This document shows positions 2 to 40,258 of a stretch of 64,000 nucleotides of DNA, piece by piece. Below the pieces are notes generated by a model, which made no database searches, was not told where the DNA came from, and worked only from the letters and a program-made list of their open reading frames with translations. Numbering within the stretch: position 1 is the stretch's first letter; each line of letters opens with the position of its first letter. The translations under genes and the position numbers were made by a program. This DNA is from a virus. The stretch covers positions 1 to 64,000 of IMG/VR virus record IMGVR_UViG_3300032284_002783; one strand, 5' to 3'.

Positions 2-58
2 GGTTTTTATTTTAAACACCGCGAACATGCTGTACAGTTTATACTTACATGGGGATAA
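2..58 (+). CDS. C-terminal fragment of small paralog-family protein (truncated by window edge)
   Basis: Frame from base 2 reads GFYFKHREHAVQFILTWG*, the same C-terminal motif as the next three ORFs. Confidence 0.6.
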   Translation, partial: GFYFKHREHAVQFILTWG

Positions 59-14002: not shown

Positions 14003-14501
14003 AACCAACCTTCAAATTGATTTGCCAAGACTGGTTAAAGATTTATCTCGCTATATTGATGTCTTCGACCAATTTAATCAATTATCTATTGTATATGATG
14101 AAAATAGATTGGTAGAAAATATCGAACCACATTATGTTGCTATCGGCAAAAGTCCACCAGACATTGATCAATGGAATCTTAACAAAATTTGTCCTTTATT
14201 TGCAAATAGTTATTTTGCGGAAATATTTGATCTAGTTCCATATAAGAAGCAACGTGCTAGAATAATGAGAATGGCACCTCGTAGCACATACAGTATGCAT
14301 GTTGATTCATATAAACGTTTGCATTGGGCTTTAATAACAGATCCTAGCTGTCATTTAACTTTTCAAAATAATGAACAATTTTTTGGTTGGCATATTCCGG
14401 CCAACGGTTTTGCATATCTTGTTGATACCAGAAAGATGCACTCTGCAGTAAATCCCTGGGATCAATATAGATATCATTTTGTTATTGATATAAAGGATTA
14501 A
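13986..14501 (+). CDS. Aspartyl/asparaginyl beta-hydroxylase-like 2OG-Fe(II) oxygenase
   Basis: RARIM..YSMHVD..RLH..VDTRKMHSAVN...RYH. Confidence 0.7.
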   Translation: MPVIFKTNLQIDLPRLVKDLSRYIDVFDQFNQLSIVYDENRLVENIEPHYVAIGKSPPDIDQWNLNKICPLFANSYFAEIFDLVPYKKQRARIMRMAPRSTYSMHVDSYKRLHWALITDPSCHLTFQNNEQFFGWHIPANGFAYLVDTRKMHSAVNPWDQYRYHFVIDIKD

Positions 14502-14503
14502 AC

Positions 14504-14650
14504 ATGAAACTACTAGTATTTCTTATATTATTGGCAATTTTGTTTGTTCTGTTTCCAGCTAAAGTTTTAGCAGCTATAATTTTAATTAGTTCTGGATTTT
14601 TATCGCTGGCTATTTTGGTATTTGTGCTAATTGCTTGTCTTCTTGGATAA
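14504..14650 (+). CDS. Small hydrophobic membrane peptide (48 aa)
   Basis: AAGGA RBS; MKLLVFLILLAILFVLFPAKVLAAIILISSGFLSLAILVFVLIACLLG; below the ORF-track cutoff. Confidence 0.6.
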   Translation: MKLLVFLILLAILFVLFPAKVLAAIILISSGFLSLAILVFVLIACLLG

Positions 14651-14660
14651 TAAAAAAAAT

Positions 14661-14964
14661 GTGCATGTGGTGATTTTGCATCTTCGGTTCAGTTGCGAAC
14701 GATAGACATCAAACAGCTTGCCATGCTTACTTCTATCTGGCCATTATTTCAGACCTGCGCTTTTTCCCAATCACCTCAGGGAAGAACCATAAGACATGAG
14801 CTAGACTCTATACATGCTGTGTGTATGGTTTTCCAATGCTCATCCGGCTTCTTCCTTACCGCGCTGGATTTTAACATGCACTATGATTTCAGCGTCTATG
14901 TTCACAGCAACATGTCAACTTACGTCATGCTTTATACTAGCAAATGTTAACTGATCAGTCTAGC
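14661..14964. ncRNA. Unassigned, multiply pseudoknotted structured RNA candidate (about 300 nt)
   Basis: GC-richer intergenic segment with at least six perfect 6-8 bp complementary pairs, several crossing; strand uncertain (minus favoured by downstream U-run). Confidence 0.55.
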
Positions 14965-15064
14965 GGATTTGTTTGAAATAATTATGTCAAAATATTAATA
15001 AATAATAATGCAGTTCGCGGAATTGGCGTTCCCAACTGCTCTATAACTCAGGAGAATTACAGCA

Positions 15065-15625
15065 ATGTCTAATATTTATTATGTATATGCATATATAAGA
15101 ACTAAAAACTCAGCAACTGCTAACGCAGGTACACCATATTATATTGGTAAAGGTAAAAATCGTCGTGCATGGGAAAAGCATATAGTACCACGGCCAATAG
15201 ACAAAAATTATATAGTTATTGTGGAATCAAATTTAACTGAAGTTGGCGCACTTGCATTAGAGCGCAGATTAATAAAATGGTATGGCGGGAAAGATTTAGA
15301 AACAGGTATATTACTTAATAGGACAGATGGCGGCGATGGCGGATCTAATATTGTTTATGAAAGGACATTAGAGCATAAACAGAATCTGTCAAATGCATTG
15401 AAAGGCAAACCAAAATCTAATGAAATGAAAAAGAAATTGTCCATTACAAACACAGGACGAAAACTATCAGAATCTACGAGGAAGAAAATATCAGAGAATA
15501 ACAAAAACAGGGTATTATCTGACGAAGTATTAGCTAAGCTTAAAATGCCAAGATCTGATGATATAAAAAGAAAAATATCAGAGTCGGTTAAAAACTCTTA
15601 TCGTTTAAGAAGATTAAAACACTGA
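15065..15625 (+). mobile_element. Free-standing GIY-YIG homing endonuclease with NUMOD3-like repeats
   Basis: YYVYAY...[18 protein letters not shown], repeated (H/T)K.KISE modules; TAAATA and AGGAG upstream. Confidence 0.85.
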
Positions 15626-16529
15626 GATTACATGTTTTACATTAGTACCTTGAGGATTATTATGAGTCTTGCGAACTCGTTTCCCTCAACATCCACTGTC
15701 CCCTCATATTGTGAGACAGTCTACTAACAATGTCGCCTTTTTTAAGGTCAGGCAGTAGACCTTTCATGCAGTGCTACTCTACAACTTTTGCACCGTTAGC
15801 CTTGCGAGCTATTCGAGAGCGCTAACCCTCTACGACACATCTGTTACAGACCAACTCCACCTTGCGAGTTTTGTTGGGCTTGGTTCTCTTACGAGCCAAG
15901 CATTAGACATCTTTCACACTACACAGGGCCAGGCTTTGCGTTTTTGTAATCGAAAGTTGGACTTGAACCAACATACGACTGCTTGGAATGCAGTTGCCTA
16001 AACCATTCGGCTATATCGTTTGAACCTACTGTGATGTGCTGGCCCTGTTGCTGCATACCTTGTTAGATACACAATACAACACACCACCTGTATTTCGTCT
16101 TGCAGACTACTTTACCGTTTACCTGGACACTGTCTAGCCTTACGAGCTAGCCAATCCCCTCAAAACTGCCAACCGCCCTTGGCTGCAAAGCCTCGAACTT
16201 GTTTGACTATCCATTATCTATCAGCATTCTGTTGGTTTGCGTGCAAAGGTGATACTTGCGGTATCTTACTCCTCACCGATTGGCTCTGGAGCACATCCTT
16301 TCGGACCTTTACCCAACTGTCCTGCTTACCACCCCTTTCGGATGGCTCCTTTCGGAGCAGACTGGACTTGCATAGTGGACCCTATTGCTAGGTGCTGGTA
16401 GGTAGGCCTTCCAGCTTTGGGTCAGTTGCCTGACTTATTCCATTAATGGCGCTATGCCGCCAATGCTTATTTTACATTTTATAGAACAAAAACTTTGCAC
16501 ATTCGCTTGCGCTTGTGTGCGCCGTCTAT
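15616..16529 (-). ncRNA. GOLLD-like giant ornate RNA (about 900 nt)
   Basis: No credible ORF; about a dozen GNRA-capped hairpins on the minus strand; 3' end CAGUGGAUG..GAGGGAAA..AAUAAUCCUC..UGUAAUCUCAG resembles the GOLLD 3' domain as recalled; own sigma70 promoter. Confidence 0.75.
15948..16020 (-). tRNA. Degenerate tRNA-Gly(UCC)-like domain embedded in the GOLLD-like RNA
   Basis: D arm GCCGAAUGGUUUAGGC, anticodon arm ACUGC-AUUCCAA-GCAGU, T arm GUUGG-UUCAAGU-CCAAC; acceptor stem has two mismatches and no CCA. Confidence 0.6.
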
Positions 16530-16535
16530 GTAGCT

Positions 16536-16564
16536 AATATACAGAGCTTGACCAGCGCTGTCAA
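16536..16564 (-). promoter_or_regulatory. Sigma70-type promoter for the GOLLD-like RNA
   Basis: TTGACA-17 nt-TATATT. Confidence 0.8.
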
Positions 16565-16624
16565 CAGCATTTTTTGATTTTTTTTAATTATTGCTGTCTT
16601 TTTTAAAAAATAGTAAAAACAGCT

Positions 16625-17155
16625 ATGAAAACTAAGTGGGAAATAAGCCTTGCACAAGGTGAATGGTTTGAGGATAATGTCGCATTGCCCTGGTTGTATG
16701 CAAATTTTCCACAATGGTGGATTACGGATTGCAGGCTAGAGAAAAAGTCACAATTTGGTGGTCCAAAAATGCGTACTGCAAATCAAGTATTAACACTGCC
16801 CGATTTTAGATTGGATAATGCAGAAACCAATCAAACTATTTGGATTGATGCCAAATATAAGACTAAGTCTTATAAGCTAGATGATTATCCGGGCGATTAC
16901 TTTACTACAATAGACCCAAGAAGCTATCAAGAATACATGGATTTTATGAAAGTTTGGCCTAACTCAGATTTTTTGATTTTGTTTGGAAAACGAACTACTA
17001 AACTACTTTATATAATGAATCTAAAAACAGCCAAGCCTGTTATGCATTGGTATAATAATGAGCATGTTACAATGGGTAGAAATAGTGTTCCATGTTTTTC
17101 AGAGCGGTATCTAGACCCGGTTGGATCTTGGAATCCAACCCTAATGCCATACTAA
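16625..17155 (+). CDS. PD-(D/E)XK nuclease-like protein
   Basis: GEWFE...LPDF...WIDAKYK. Confidence 0.65.
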   Translation: MKTKWEISLAQGEWFEDNVALPWLYANFPQWWITDCRLEKKSQFGGPKMRTANQVLTLPDFRLDNAETNQTIWIDAKYKTKSYKLDDYPGDYFTTIDPRSYQEYMDFMKVWPNSDFLILFGKRTTKLLYIMNLKTAKPVMHWYNNEHVTMGRNSVPCFSERYLDPVGSWNPTLMPY

Positions 17156-17833: not shown

Positions 17834-18054
17834 GTTAGTTTAAAAACCATTGCATCTTCTTGATTTGAAAAAATTAATCTATAGCTATCGTCAACAAAGA
17901 CAAAATTCCAAGTCTTTCCAATCTTTCCAAAATTGGTTTGTAACCATTCTCCAACTTCTAGCCTCAAGCTACACCACGATCTACCAATTAACAGCACTGG
18001 ATGGTTTTTAGTCTGGGCCGACCGATCATCTATAGGAAGCTCAACTATAACCAT
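17824..18054 (-). CDS. Small paralog-family protein
   Basis: Ends LIFSNQEDAMVFKLTWL; start at MVIVEL. Confidence 0.7.
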   Translation of the reverse strand: MVIVELPIDDRSAQTKNHPVLLIGRSWCSLRLEVGEWLQTNFGKIGKTWNFVFVDDSYRLIFSNQEDAMVFKLTWL

Positions 18055-18488
18055 GTTAGTGTAAACATAGCACAATCTTCTCGATTTTCAAAGTAAAATC
18101 TGCTAAATCTCATATCAAAAATATATCCACATTCGCCCAAGTTGTGGATGCACCAAAGCTTCGCCTCTCCAGCTTTTTTATAATCGTTAACATAAACCCA
18201 CGGATAGTTTGCTGCCACGATATCGGCGTGCAAAGTAAACTTACGTCTATCATATAAACGCAAGAATTTCTTAAAATGTCCAGGTTGTAGAGGTATTTTT
18301 AATCTGTTATCATATTTACGTTTGGATTTAGACCCGTATCTAATACTGAAAATTTGACCAGTAGGTGCAGTCATTGGCTGTACACCAATAATATCATTAG
18401 CGACAACTGTTGGAACGGCTCTATGGAGTATTGTTGTTACTACCTGTGATATGGATTCTTGTGTTGATACAGTATCAGACATAGACAT
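18045..18488 (-). CDS. gp23 major-capsid motif fused to a paralog-family domain
   Basis: HRAVPTVVANDIIGVQPMTAPTGQIFSIRY plus C-terminal FYFENREDCAMFTLTWL. Confidence 0.7.
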   Translation of the reverse strand: MSMSDTVSTQESISQVVTTILHRAVPTVVANDIIGVQPMTAPTGQIFSIRYGSKSKRKYDNRLKIPLQPGHFKKFLRLYDRRKFTLHADIVAANYPWVYVNDYKKAGEAKLWCIHNLGECGYIFDMRFSRFYFENREDCAMFTLTWL

Positions 18489-19408: not shown

Positions 19409-19746
19409 ACGTGAAAACTTTGACCGCACCCGCAACGACCTTTCTCGTTGGGATTAGTGAAAAAGAAACCGTTTGAAAATTCTTCTTCTTTATAGTCCAT
19501 AATTGAGCCAATTAAAAAAAGTATACTTTTTCTGTCTATGAGAATCTTAATATCATCTATAGCAATTACTTCATCTTGTGCATCTATGCTATCGCTGTAT
19601 TCTAATGTATAACTTAGGCCGCTGCAGCCTTTAGTACGAATACCAATTCTGATGCCAGCTGTGTCTTTTGACCTAGCAGCAATCATTTCTTTTATTTTAC
19701 TTGCAGCTAACTCAGTTACCTGTAGTAGCTGAGGACGATTCTTCAT
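19405..19746 (-). CDS. iscA: Fe-S cluster assembly A-type carrier IscA
   Basis: KGCSGLSY...RCGCGQSF; start at MKNRPQ. Confidence 0.92.
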   Translation of the reverse strand: MKNRPQLLQVTELAASKIKEMIAARSKDTAGIRIGIRTKGCSGLSYTLEYSDSIDAQDEVIAIDDIKILIDRKSILFLIGSIMDYKEEEFSNGFFFTNPNEKGRCGCGQSFHV

Positions 19747-21154
19747 GGGCTGGTTCCATTTGCTTTTTGCGATAATCTTCAATAGCAGCTTTAATAGCAT
19801 CTTCAGCTAACACGCTGCAGTGTATTTTTACTGGTGGCAGGCTTAAATGCTGAGCGATATCTGTATTTCTAATACTAGCTGCTTCGTCTAGAGTTTTACC
19901 TTTAACCCATTCAGTTACTAGGCTTGACGCCGCAATCGCTGAACCACAGTTATGAGAACCAACCCTATTTGAGAAAAAAACATGAGCACCATCGTCTAAT
20001 TTTAAATCATATACTATTACAGTCTTACCGTCGCGTTCACATCCTCGTAATTGATTTAGGTGAGTAATTGGCGAGATGTTGACTATTTTGATTCCGTTAT
20101 GTATAAAATTTTGTACTTTTGGTAGTGCAGTTTCTATATCTTCTATTGCTAAAAATAATGAATCGTATCCAGCAGTTGCAAGTTGTTGGCGGCGTTGCTC
20201 TACATAATTAGATTCCTCAGACCTATCTTGCATAAATTTAGGCATACGTTTTGTGTAAACTTCTATGCATTTTTTCTTACCGGGAACGATAAAGTCTGGA
20301 CTAGCAGGACCATTTATGGTTTGAATCCAAATTTTGCCAGCACTCCACACTGCTGCTACATTGTTTTCTTCAAATAAATTAATATATGTTTGTTCGATGC
20401 TAGTAGGTAAAGACCAATCACGGCGTGACATACCTTCCTGCCATTTTTTAATGTACTCACTATCTTGCCATTTTTTTAGGCTCGCTTCACGTTGTTTCTT
20501 TTTCATTGTTACCGGATCTTTACATATGAATCCGGGTTGGTTTTGTGGTAATACAGAATGATCAAAATTTTTGTTCCATTCTTTCATTCTAACACTACTT
20601 TTTTCTTTAAAATTAGCACGATGTCTAATGTTAGTTAATATTCTTAATTCGTGTTCAGTTATTTCATATAGTTCTTGACCAACCTGTAGTTGTTGAGCTT
20701 CAACCGGTTGATTATTTGCATTCCAAAATATATGTTCTTTTGTGCAAATTAGAGAGAATGTGCCAGCATTGATATTTTTTCGGCTGGATTTACGTCTAAA
20801 AGTAACAACTAATAAATCATTAATGTCAACAGAATGCTTGATAATATCTCTTATTTTTTGATTAACAATTCTTTCGCCATTCCAAGCCAGTACTTCGTCT
20901 CCTATATTTAAATCTTTGATTTTTTTAACACAGGTTGGTGTATTAATTGGAGCATTGCTGGTCAAGCAACCAAATGTTTTGAACTTAGCATCTTCAATAA
21001 GTCCTTCTGGACTTACTTTGATTTGCAGCTTCATAACATCTCCGCAAGCCGGAGCTCCTACTAAACCGGTTCCAACATTAGAATCTAGTTTATCAAGTGA
21101 TCCTATATTTCTAGGATTTTCATAATGATCTATTAGCCTACTGCTGTATGTCAT
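19712..21154 (-). CDS. iscU: Fe-S scaffold IscU interrupted by an intein
   Basis: DHYENPRNIG, GAPACGDVM, KTFG|intein|CGSAIAASS, LPPVKIHCS; spliced product about 140 aa. Confidence 0.93.
   Translation of the reverse strand: MTYSSRLIDHYENPRNIGSLDKLDSNVGTGLVGAPACGDVMKLQIKVSPEGLIEDAKFKTFGCLTSNAPINTPTCVKKIKDLNIGDEVLAWNGERIVNQKIRDIIKHSVDINDLLVVTFRRKSSRKNINAGTFSLICTKEHIFWNANNQPVEAQQLQVGQELYEITEHELRILTNIRHRANFKEKSSVRMKEWNKNFDHSVLPQNQPGFICKDPVTMKKKQREASLKKWQDSEYIKKWQEGMSRRDWSLPTSIEQTYINLFEENNVAAVWSAGKIWIQTINGPASPDFIVPGKKKCIEVYTKRMPKFMQDRSEESNYVEQRRQQLATAGYDSLFLAIEDIETALPKVQNFIHNGIKIVNISPITHLNQLRGCERDGKTVIVYDLKLDDGAHVFFSNRVGSHNCGSAIAASSLVTEWVKGKTLDEAASIRNTDIAQHLSLPPVKIHCSVLAEDAIKAAIEDYRKKQMEPAHEESSSATTGN
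19949..20968 (-). mobile_element. Intein (340 aa) with internal Vsr/DUF559-like endonuclease
   Basis: Block A CLTSNAPI, block B CTKEHIF, block F VYDL, block G SHN followed by Cys+1; internal SPDF...CIEV nuclease motif. Confidence 0.9.
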
Positions 21155-39709: not shown

Positions 39710-39877
39710 ATGGGCAAACCAAATTTTATAAAAGGTAAGACCGCATGGAACAAAGGAAAAAATAATCCTAATGCTGCCGAAAACGGTAAAAAAGGAGCAT
39801 TATTACAATCTATCAAGGTCATTGGTCGAAAACGAAAATATAATGATGACGGTACATGGTCATGGTATTACCCATAA
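39710..39877 (+). pseudogene. Remnant of homing endonuclease DNA-binding tail
   Basis: 55 aa KGKTAWNKGK..GRKRKY.DDGTWSW; no nuclease domain upstream. Confidence 0.5.
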
Positions 39878-39880
39878 TAA

Positions 39881-39908
39881 AATAAGGGAGCATTAATGCT
39901 CCCTTATT
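39881..39908. terminator. Intrinsic terminator after tmRNA
   Basis: AATAAGGGAGCA-TTAA-TGCTCCCTTATT. Confidence 0.8.
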
Positions 39909-40220
39909 TGATCTTTTCTGTTTCTAAGAAGACCGATCTCAATCTTAGGCTACTGCCTGAAGAAACGGAGCATTATCATTTGCTGCGTTTATTGTTTTTG
40001 ATCTATAAAGCGATCATCCTGCTATCTACTTCAATACCTTCAGCGCCAATCGATCCCAGTTATCCCCCATCAAAAGCACAGCCCGCTTTGCCTTTTCAGC
40101 TTATCCAAAAAACGACCTAGCATGTTTGCAACCATGTTATCCAGGCGTCTGTGCTTGTGGTGGAGGATTGGGGAGTTGAACCCCAGTCTTGATCACCTAT
40201 ATATTGCTATCAACAACAGC
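39909..40220 (-). ncRNA. ssrA: Two-piece (circularly permuted) tmRNA
   Basis: Acceptor piece with T arm and AUCCUCC-A-CCA (ends 40158); intervening segment; coding piece starts GGGGGAU (40068) giving G3:U70; tag (A)ANDNAPFLQAVA* at 39945-39986. Confidence 0.92.
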
Positions 40221-40225
40221 TAGTA

Positions 40226-40233
40226 TATTTATA
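40226..40233 (-). promoter_or_regulatory. T4-type late promoter for tmRNA
   Basis: Exact TATAAATA. Confidence 0.75.
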
Positions 40234-40258
40234 ACACAGATTTTTTAAAAATCAAGAC

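Follow-up and report, generated by a model that had tools for sequence, protein, structure and literature searches.

A GOLLD RNA gene with its own predicted sigma-70 promoter and a tRNA-like linker module in a probable fragment of a very large phage

The window analysed here is a stretch of 64,000 nt, the first 64 kb of the 76.7-kb IMG/VR virus record IMGVR_UViG_3300032284_002783. We are highly confident that a minus-strand region in this window encodes a ~911-nt GOLLD RNA which has a sigma-70 promoter of its own. GOLLD RNAs are among the largest and most elaborate RNAs of bacteria and phages, and their cage structure was solved only in 2025. The copy is a genuine member of this known family and hence is not new in kind. 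It carries a tRNA-like module in its J13/15 linker. From a comparison of such modules with the tRNAs encoded by the same loci, we lean slightly towards the view that the module is for the most part not released and functions as a tRNA-shaped element of the RNA, not as an ordinary tRNA gene. Feature coordinates are listed in Table 1.

The Rfam covariance model for GOLLD (RF02032) matches positions 15619-16087 on the minus strand with 202.6 bits (gathering score 150, E = 1e-55), and the match covers model positions 1-416 of 416. The family had been named in a first-pass annotation of the DNA, and this call is borne out by the covariance model. The same annotation had described about 900 nt devoid of a credible open reading frame (ORF), which also holds: between 15626 and 16624, no ORF with a start codon is longer than 76 aa on either strand. 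Besides GOLLD and tRNA, no Rfam family was found in 14300-16800 at E <= 1. That the region is something other than GOLLD (a new large RNA, a group I intron with a neighbouring homing endonuclease, or small protein genes) has hardly any probability at all. Stop-free frames of up to 118 codons on the antisense strand would speak for such an assignment, but the ORFs are not conserved in relatives; the two longest in the region stay open in just 6/57 and 21/57 of them. An HNH or homing-endonuclease-like ORF adjoins the 3' end of the RNA, but a related DNA contig keeps the RNA although it is devoid of this ORF. The full-length GOLLD match is far above the cut-off, an intron or another family is not found at E <= 1, and RNA covariation is extensive, all of which argues against a different identity.

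Homologues were collected with the P13/P14-hairpin pattern, which retrieved 87 viral contigs, many of them longer than 300 kb. After removal of near-duplicates, 58 full-length homologues were aligned, and "relatives" refers to this non-redundant set unless another number is given. The RNA is built from two domains, a 5' domain of ~440 nt (of which ~380-440 nt covary) and a 3' domain of ~470 nt. The Rfam model spans the conserved 3' half only. Within this half, helices 1 and 2 of the P13/P14 hairpin are 97.5% and 92.4% paired in the relatives, with compensatory changes. The linker is closed by a pseudoknot for which 99% of cells are paired (51 distinct sequences, 3 pairs with compensatory changes). 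In the window, this helix has 8 pairs and extends to 10 bp (16048-16039 with 15932-15923). It is absent from the Rfam consensus structure, and the complementarity is visible by eye in unrelated GOLLD loci. The helix is probably P15, given the published naming of L15 as J13/15 (PMC12990946). The full named structure is 95.4% paired, compared to 80.3% in shuffles (0/500 reach the observed value) and 35-47% with slid partners.

An unbiased scan of the alignment for covarying antiparallel column runs recovered all helices of the 3' domain. The scan also yielded a second long-range pseudoknot (6 pairs, 5 of them covarying), which is non-nested in the Rfam consensus structure and is probably P17; it joins the GAAAG-NNNNN-CUAAU strand to the strand that follows the P16 closure. 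A 4-bp contact between 16254-16251 and 15649-15646 came from the same scan and is probably spurious; the alignment is poor there. The 3' domain also has two adjacent hairpins. The first has the loop UUAGCG, with GC at 15822-15821, while the second has a GCAA loop closed by C-G. By their place in the Rfam alignment, these hairpins would be L21a and L21b. In the env-38 cage, L21a and L21b are reported to be symmetric intermolecular kissing loops (PMC12286853); L21a of GOLLD RNAs bears a GC or CG dinucleotide, and L21b is conserved.

The 5' domain was found by nhmmer to be homologous in 57 loci. RNAalifold, applied to this domain from the 12 closest relatives, predicts 98 pairs, 74 of which show compensatory changes, with a covariation term of -23 kcal/mol. 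The 448-nt 5' part of the window RNA folds better than 100/100 shuffles (z = -3.2). All four of the minus-strand GNRA hairpins listed in the first-pass annotation exist, and they belong to the 5' domain, outside the part covered by the GOLLD model. One of their stems had been misread, however, and is really GAUAC-CGCAA-GUAUC, with a 5-bp stem and a 5-nt loop. Four GNRA loops are closed directly by >= 4 pairs, compared to 0.73 expected; four are reached by 13/2000 dinucleotide shuffles. A loop-to-strand pairing within the domain consists of 5 consecutive pairs, 3 of which covary (58 sequences), and is also visible in the RNAalifold consensus. This 5-bp pairing, which involves the loop of the first core hairpin, reads CAUAG/CUAUG here, and UAUAG/CUAUA or CUUAG/CUAAG in relatives. 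Judged from the letters, the pairing could arise either intramolecularly, as a pseudoknot, or between subunits, as a kissing contact. When the 5' half of the window RNA was compared by nhmmer to 88 generic GOLLD loci of lake and marine type, which had been collected with a 3'-end pattern, there were 0 matches; the 3' half gave one weak match. In published GOLLD RNAs, a large structured 5' domain with helices P1-P12 precedes the 3' domain, and the covarying 5' domain of the window RNA would be its counterpart.

The strong sigma-70 promoter of the first-pass annotation, TTGACA-17-TATATT, is indeed present. It agrees with the consensus at 11/12 positions and is conserved in position: a strict TTGAC[AT]-16..18-TAnnnT motif occurs at the homologous place in 20/58 relatives. 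The promoter scan overall gave no excess of sites over shuffles, and the site gains weight solely because of this conserved position. Transcription is predicted to start near 16529. It would be early and strong, as suggested by a host-type consensus promoter in a T4-like phage. In many relatives that have no promoter motif, the RNA lies directly 3' of a tRNA gene, and processing of this tRNA presumably generates the 5' end of the RNA. The leader is poorly conserved in sequence; the conserved core begins near 16466. A leader hairpin is also seen, by eye only, in relatives with long leaders (Phosso and loci L098 and L115). The leader hairpin and its U-run were considered as an attenuator, and this untested candidate was dropped: relatives with long leaders seem, by eye, to have a hairpin there as well, and its fold is at shuffle level. 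No convincing terminator was found 3' of 15619, where the tail fold is weak (z = -0.7). The two minus-strand sites reported by the terminator scan are the leader hairpin (16512-16497) and the T-arm of the tRNA-like module.

Contigs from three aquatic metatranscriptome runs, all from one study, are 90-99% alike to the window RNA and lie on 15708-16438. Among the contigs from RNA libraries, several bridge the borders of the tRNA-like module (67 nt identical over 15986-16052; 487 nt on 15708-16102; 188 nt on 15915-16102). This is a hint that such RNAs exist uncleaved. The contigs give no cover outside 15629-16438, which was not used as evidence; the relatives share only the RNA, and absence cannot be read from contigs.

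The first pseudoknot closes the linker into a loop, and the module lies within this loop. ARAGORN reports it as tRNA-Gly with anticodon UCC at 15946-16021. Bacterial (E. coli) glycyl-tRNA synthetase uses G1:C72, C2:G71, G3:C70 and U73. U73 is present in the module; a full 7-bp acceptor stem with these glycine identity pairs is not. Instead, the acceptor stem starts with an A:U pair and contains an A.A and a U.U non-pair. CCA is not encoded: U15948, the discriminator, is the last base of the 3' strand, and the next three letters are ACA. The nearly invariant linker motif AGUAGGUU is overlapped, in most relatives, by the outer 5' strand of the acceptor. A linker tRNA detectable by ARAGORN is found in 41/58 relatives, where it starts 9-17 nt after P13, and in 0/88 of the generic GOLLD loci. 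Within the subgroup, the linker modules have anticodons for Asn, Lys, Thr, Ser, Arg, Leu, Ile, Gln and His, with Gly in the window. Module bodies which are 92-98% identical bear different anticodons.

The subgroup loci are tRNA-dense, with 1039 other ARAGORN tRNAs in ~90 loci of <= 15 kb, 96-97% of them with encoded CCA. This permits an internal control, in which 39 distinct linker modules were compared to 724 distinct other tRNAs of the same loci. CCA is encoded in 2/39 linker modules (5%) but in 696/724 of the other tRNAs (96%; p = 1e-42). At least one acceptor mismatch is found in 82% of linker modules and 14% of other tRNAs (p = 6e-20), and at least two in 54% and 2%, respectively (p = 1e-20). 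Anticodon loops are non-canonical in 13% versus 0.4% (p = 1e-5). The G+C content is 41% in linker modules and 53.5% in the others (64 vs 1039 tRNAs, non-deduplicated). Despite this difference from the neighbouring tRNAs, pairing in relatives is 93-100% for the stems of the D, anticodon and T arms and for the inner four pairs of the acceptor, with compensatory changes in 3/3 pairs of the D stem, 5/5 of the anticodon stem and 3/5 of the T stem, in an alignment dominated by ARAGORN-detectable modules. Because of this pairing and the many compensatory changes, we consider the L-shaped fold to be under selection. The arms are thus kept by selection, while CCA and a well-paired acceptor are missing, and from this we infer a built-in tRNA-like part. 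For Mycobacterium aubagnense, a pseudo-tRNA has been described within GOLLD for which Northern blots showed no signal of its own (PMC6582537).

It is possible, if rather doubtful, that the cloverleaf is a real tRNA-Gly(UCC) gene. The cage would then store a tRNA that cannot be cleaved, opening of the cage would free it to be processed by RNase P and RNase Z and to receive CCA, and the chief role of this GOLLD would be a timed supply of tRNA. The Rfam score of 51.2 bits and the ARAGORN call fit this, as does the covariation of all four arms in the relatives. Bacterial tRNA-Gly has U73 and C35/C36, and these are found in the module together with a canonical anticodon loop. GOLLD genes of the subgroup are, moreover, placed in dense tRNA arrays (the 1039 tRNAs in ~90 loci). 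The idea of "inhibited storage" has been published (PMC12990946), and linked tRNAs are drawn exposed in Fig. 4c of PMC12286853. However, the module encodes no CCA, whereas 96% of the other tRNAs of the same phages do. The acceptor with its A.A and U.U non-pairs starts with A1:U72 instead of the G1:C72/C2:G71/G3:C70 set. The non-canonical anticodon loops in 13% of the linker modules, the decayed D or T loops of some relatives and the different anticodons on near-identical bodies do not fit either. Finally, the module borders are bridged by RNA-library contigs, and a separate pseudo-tRNA was not seen in M. aubagnense (PMC6582537).

The missing CCA, the acceptor mismatches and the fast-changing anticodons would also be expected from a decaying remnant of an old tRNA insertion, which has no role and is carried along in a tolerant, disordered linker. 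We regard this as quite improbable. The length of the linker varies, the cryo-electron microscopy (cryo-EM) map shows it as disordered (PMC12286853), linker tRNAs are confined to the subgroup when compared to the 88 generic loci, and some subgroup members have short linkers or degraded D/T loops. However, the module is kept at the same position in 41/58 relatives, and stem pairing of 93-100% with compensatory changes argues for selection on the fold, even if ARAGORN-detectable cases dominate the alignment.

Several points weigh against an attached, tRNA-shaped part. In the module of the window, the anticodon loop is canonical (7 nt, U33 and A37) and the T-loop is good, and the Rfam score of 51 bits is within the range of real phage tRNAs. 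Host RNase Z and a CCA-adding enzyme could mature a CCA-less precursor, so that a working tRNA is possible. The identity of Asn and Lys tRNAs depends largely on the anticodon; switches between GUU and UUU could, therefore, be functional recruitment rather than drift. The metatranscriptome contigs are from relatives and from one study, DNA carry-over is possible, and the fraction of cleaved RNA cannot be read from them. For the phage of the window, the transcript ends, abundance and timing are predictions. The wider picture of a cage is affected as well. The published L20-J13/15 kissing loop was not recovered by the covariation scan of the 58 relatives. Multimerisation would be extrapolated from two distant family members, and most of the published inter-subunit contacts are unmapped here.

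By homology, 10 to 14 copies of the RNA would self-assemble into a closed, protein-free cage, in which the caps would be formed by the 5' domains and the equatorial rings by the 3' domains, with the linker pointing into the cavity. Cages with an inward-facing linker have been seen by cryo-EM for the env-38 and Streptococcus agalactiae GOLLD RNAs (PMC12286853, PMC12990946). An attached module would be displayed inside the cage, one per subunit. We can only guess that the cage may present tRNA-shaped RNA to, or shield it from, tRNA-binding host or phage factors during infection. It is tempting to speculate further that the module is a selected tRNA mimic common to the viral subgroup, although we rate this as rather unlikely. 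In its interior, the cage would then show 10-14 CCA-less tRNA bodies whose acceptors are weak but whose elbows and anticodon loops are intact. Host factors directed at tRNA, such as anticodon nucleases and other defences that cleave tRNA, RNase P, or modification enzymes, could meet a decoy or trap in these bodies. The bodies could also be docking sites through which such factors are brought into the cage. If true, this would be the first function for GOLLD.

Table 1. Positions in the window of the GOLLD RNA, its elements and the permuted tmRNA.
Feature	Position	Strand	Basis or remark
Sigma-70-type promoter	-35 TTGACA 16564-16559; 17-nt spacer; -10 TATATT 16541-16536	-	A-rich stretch upstream
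Whole GOLLD RNA, ~911 nt including the tRNA-like module	15619..16529	-	5' end predicted from promoter, 3' end taken from end of Rfam match
Leader hairpin, then U-run and A/U-rich spacer	16483..16535	-	Fold -14.2 kcal/mol, no better than shuffles
Conserved structured 5' domain with four GNRA hairpins	16088..16466	-	nhmmer and RNAalifold
Loop-to-strand pairing, hairpin loop GCAUA with UAUGC	16457-16453 with 16374-16370	-	Covariation
GUCAG-GCAA-CUGAC hairpin	16434-16421	-	Sequence
GCUCC-GAAA-GGAGC hairpin	16358-16345	-	Sequence
Invariant GUCC-GAAA-GGAU hairpin	~16308-16297	-	Within conserved 5' domain
GAUAC-CGCAA-GUAUC hairpin	16265-16251	-	Sequence
CUAGC(U)C-GUAA-GGCUAG hairpin	16150-16134	-	Sequence
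P13/P14 hairpin, first element of conserved 3' domain	16031..16087	-	Model positions 1-62
First pseudoknot, 5' strand (bulge, 3' side of P14)	16039..16046	-	Covariation
tRNA-Gly(UCC)-like cloverleaf in J13/15 linker	15948..16020	-	Rfam RF00005, 51.2 bits (cut-off 29)
First pseudoknot, 3' strand (last linker bases)	15925..15932	-	Covariation
Rest of 3' domain: long helix 15924-15916 with 15774-15766, then hairpins to terminal GUAAUCUCAG motif	15619..15924	-	Full-length model match
Second long-range pseudoknot, GAUGUC with GACAUU	15911-15906 with 15734-15729	-	Covariation scan
Two adjacent hairpins at L21a/L21b model positions ~229-264	15797..15830	-	Rfam alignment; both stems covary
Permuted (two-piece) tmRNA	39945-40220; ARAGORN 39854-40251	-	Rfam RF04321, 82.6 bits; tag AANDNAPFLQAVA

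The RNA gene is found in a phage setting. The virus record codes for both subunits of topoisomerase II, both subunits of ribonucleotide reductase, a clamp-loader-like ATPase, and tail and other virion proteins. CheckV assigns a completeness of 18% to the 76.7-kb record, which would correspond to a genome of ~400 kb; the record is thus a probable fragment of a phage of the 400-kb class. Among isolates, the large subunit of topoisomerase II is closest to that of Sinorhizobium phage Phosso (469 kb; 53.9% aa identity), followed by Agrobacterium phage Atu_ph07 (490 kb; 49.4%). The fragment would be best explained as part of a very large phage of the T4-like type, with relatives among the Rhizobiales jumbo phages. 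Phages of Sinorhizobium, Phaeobacter and Ruegeria also carry the GOLLD subgroup of the window. When 185,579 species genomes were searched with the subgroup pattern, it was found only in Thalassospira xianhensis, Pseudaminobacter soli and one contig of a gammaproteobacterial metagenome-assembled genome, so that 2/3 of the cellular matches are from Alphaproteobacteria. The record also encodes a permuted transfer-messenger RNA (tmRNA). The probable alphaproteobacterial host proposed in the first-pass annotation is reasonably supported: the nearest isolates, the phages of the subgroup, the cellular matches and the tmRNA agree, which makes such a host likely, though unproven. GOLLD genes of phages and prophages usually lie in or beside tRNA arrays. 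The 76.7-kb record has no tRNA array, and the embedded module is its sole tRNA-like gene; the record is ~18% of the genome, so an array may lie elsewhere.

The endonuclease-like ORF codes for 186 aa (15065-15625, plus strand; PHROG 314, E = 1e-14) and is convergent with GOLLD; the ORF ends, with its stop codon, directly at the 3' end of the RNA. The related DNA contig mentioned above (run X2) matches 14900-14944 and has 168 nt in place of 14945-15707. This is consistent with the ORF being a mobile insertion. A group I intron around the ORF was considered and rejected, since no Rfam match was obtained in 14300-16800 at E <= 1. Next to the endonuclease ORF, the ~560 nt at 14501-15064 do not contain an ORF above 85 aa, and no Rfam match at E <= 1 was found in this gap (14.5-15.06 kb). 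The region 14480-15070 was also considered as a conserved RNA trailing GOLLD, and nhmmer gave no match against ~180 GOLLD loci. On the other side of GOLLD, a search for related loci with the neighbouring 176-aa protein (16625-17155) found no relatives, and synteny could, therefore, not be used. Two further minus-strand ORFs are listed as side observations. A 480-aa ORF (19712-21154) matches a NifU/IscU-like Fe-S scaffold PHROG in two separated stretches. In a 147-aa ORF (18045-18488), the first ~60 residues resemble a small segment of PHROGs for the major head protein (phrog_138, E = 8e-11), and the rest of the capsid protein is missing.

A single GOLLD copy adds little. The value lies in the subgroup-level view of the linker module and in relatives which can be cultivated. 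Among large phages of water and soil, the subgroup is well populated: at least 87 viral contigs carry it, compared to 3 matches in 185,579 species genomes. Its 5' domain is alignable and covaries. The systematic difference between modules and other tRNAs turns the published ideas on a "tRNA in the cage" into a choice between a stored tRNA and a tRNA mimic. Because cultured phage-host pairs carry subgroup members that are not annotated, this question is open to ordinary phage genetics. Such pairs are MD18 with P. inhibens, DSS3P8 with R. pomeroyi and Phosso with S. meliloti.

Among characterized GOLLD RNAs, env-38 is an RNA of 833 nt that forms a 14-mer D7 nanocage (PDB 9MEE; Kretsch et al. 2025, PMC12286853). 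Both are of phage origin, and the window RNA resembles env-38 in matching the 3' domain model at full length, in a 5' domain of ~420-440 nt, in a variable J13/15 linker closed by a pseudoknot and in hairpins at the putative L21a/L21b positions. The window RNA exceeds env-38 by ~80 nt because its linker holds the tRNA-like module. In env-38 the linker is 42 nt long and disordered, and a tRNA-Met lies upstream, while the window RNA has a sigma-70 promoter of its own and no flanking tRNA array in 76.7 kb. The GOLLD RNA from S. agalactiae (700 nt) is a dodecamer (PDB 9L0R), and its 3' domain alone is a decamer (PDB 9LMF; PMC12990946). It shares the family and the 3' domain, and the oligomer number varies with the 5' helices and P21 hairpins present. 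It is, however, a Firmicute prophage form devoid of P9, P11a-c and P21b. With hairpins at both P21a/b positions, the window RNA would be closer to env-38 in this respect. ROOL RNA (Rfam RF03087) is also a large phage-borne RNA that is found near tRNAs and forms an RNA-only cage with an inward-facing linker. Its sequence and fold are unrelated, and the window region has no ROOL match at E <= 1.

The cultured relatives belong to the same subgroup and have an alignable 5' domain, with a mean column identity of ~68%. In Sinorhizobium phage Phosso (PV764938), GOLLD is at 2468-2936 of locus L090 (186.6 bits with the Rfam model) and is unannotated. Phaeobacter phage MD18 (MT270409) carries it at 2528-2995 of locus L091 (169.6 bits), where only the module is annotated, as tRNA-Arg. 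The copy in Roseobacter phage DSS3P8 (KT870145), at 2526-2959 of locus L092 (150.7 bits), is again unannotated. Phosso, whose topoisomerase II is the nearest to that of the window, has the promoter at the same position and also has a linker tRNA. MD18 has a linker tRNA, while DSS3P8 is devoid of it. Both MD18 and DSS3P8 have tRNA arrays upstream of GOLLD, which are absent from the window record, and an alpha-type permuted tmRNA ~200 nt or less downstream (L091 3206-3621, L092 3130-3516), whereas 24 kb separate GOLLD from the tmRNA in the window.

tRNAs in a GOLLD linker have already been published (PMC12286853), including a Mycolicibacterium tRNA-Phe in J13/15, as cited in PMC12990946. The mycobacterial GOLLD RNAs (Mycolicibacterium, M. 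aubagnense) have a tRNA-shaped element at the same topological place. That of M. aubagnense is also called a pseudo-tRNA and has no separate transcript, and an HNH endonuclease gene is nearby, as in the window (PMC6582537). They differ in host phylum and anticodon, and in belonging to a horizontally acquired chromosomal tRNA cluster rather than to a jumbo phage. What is new here is that the degenerate character of the module holds across a whole viral subgroup, in comparison to the tRNA genes of the same phages.

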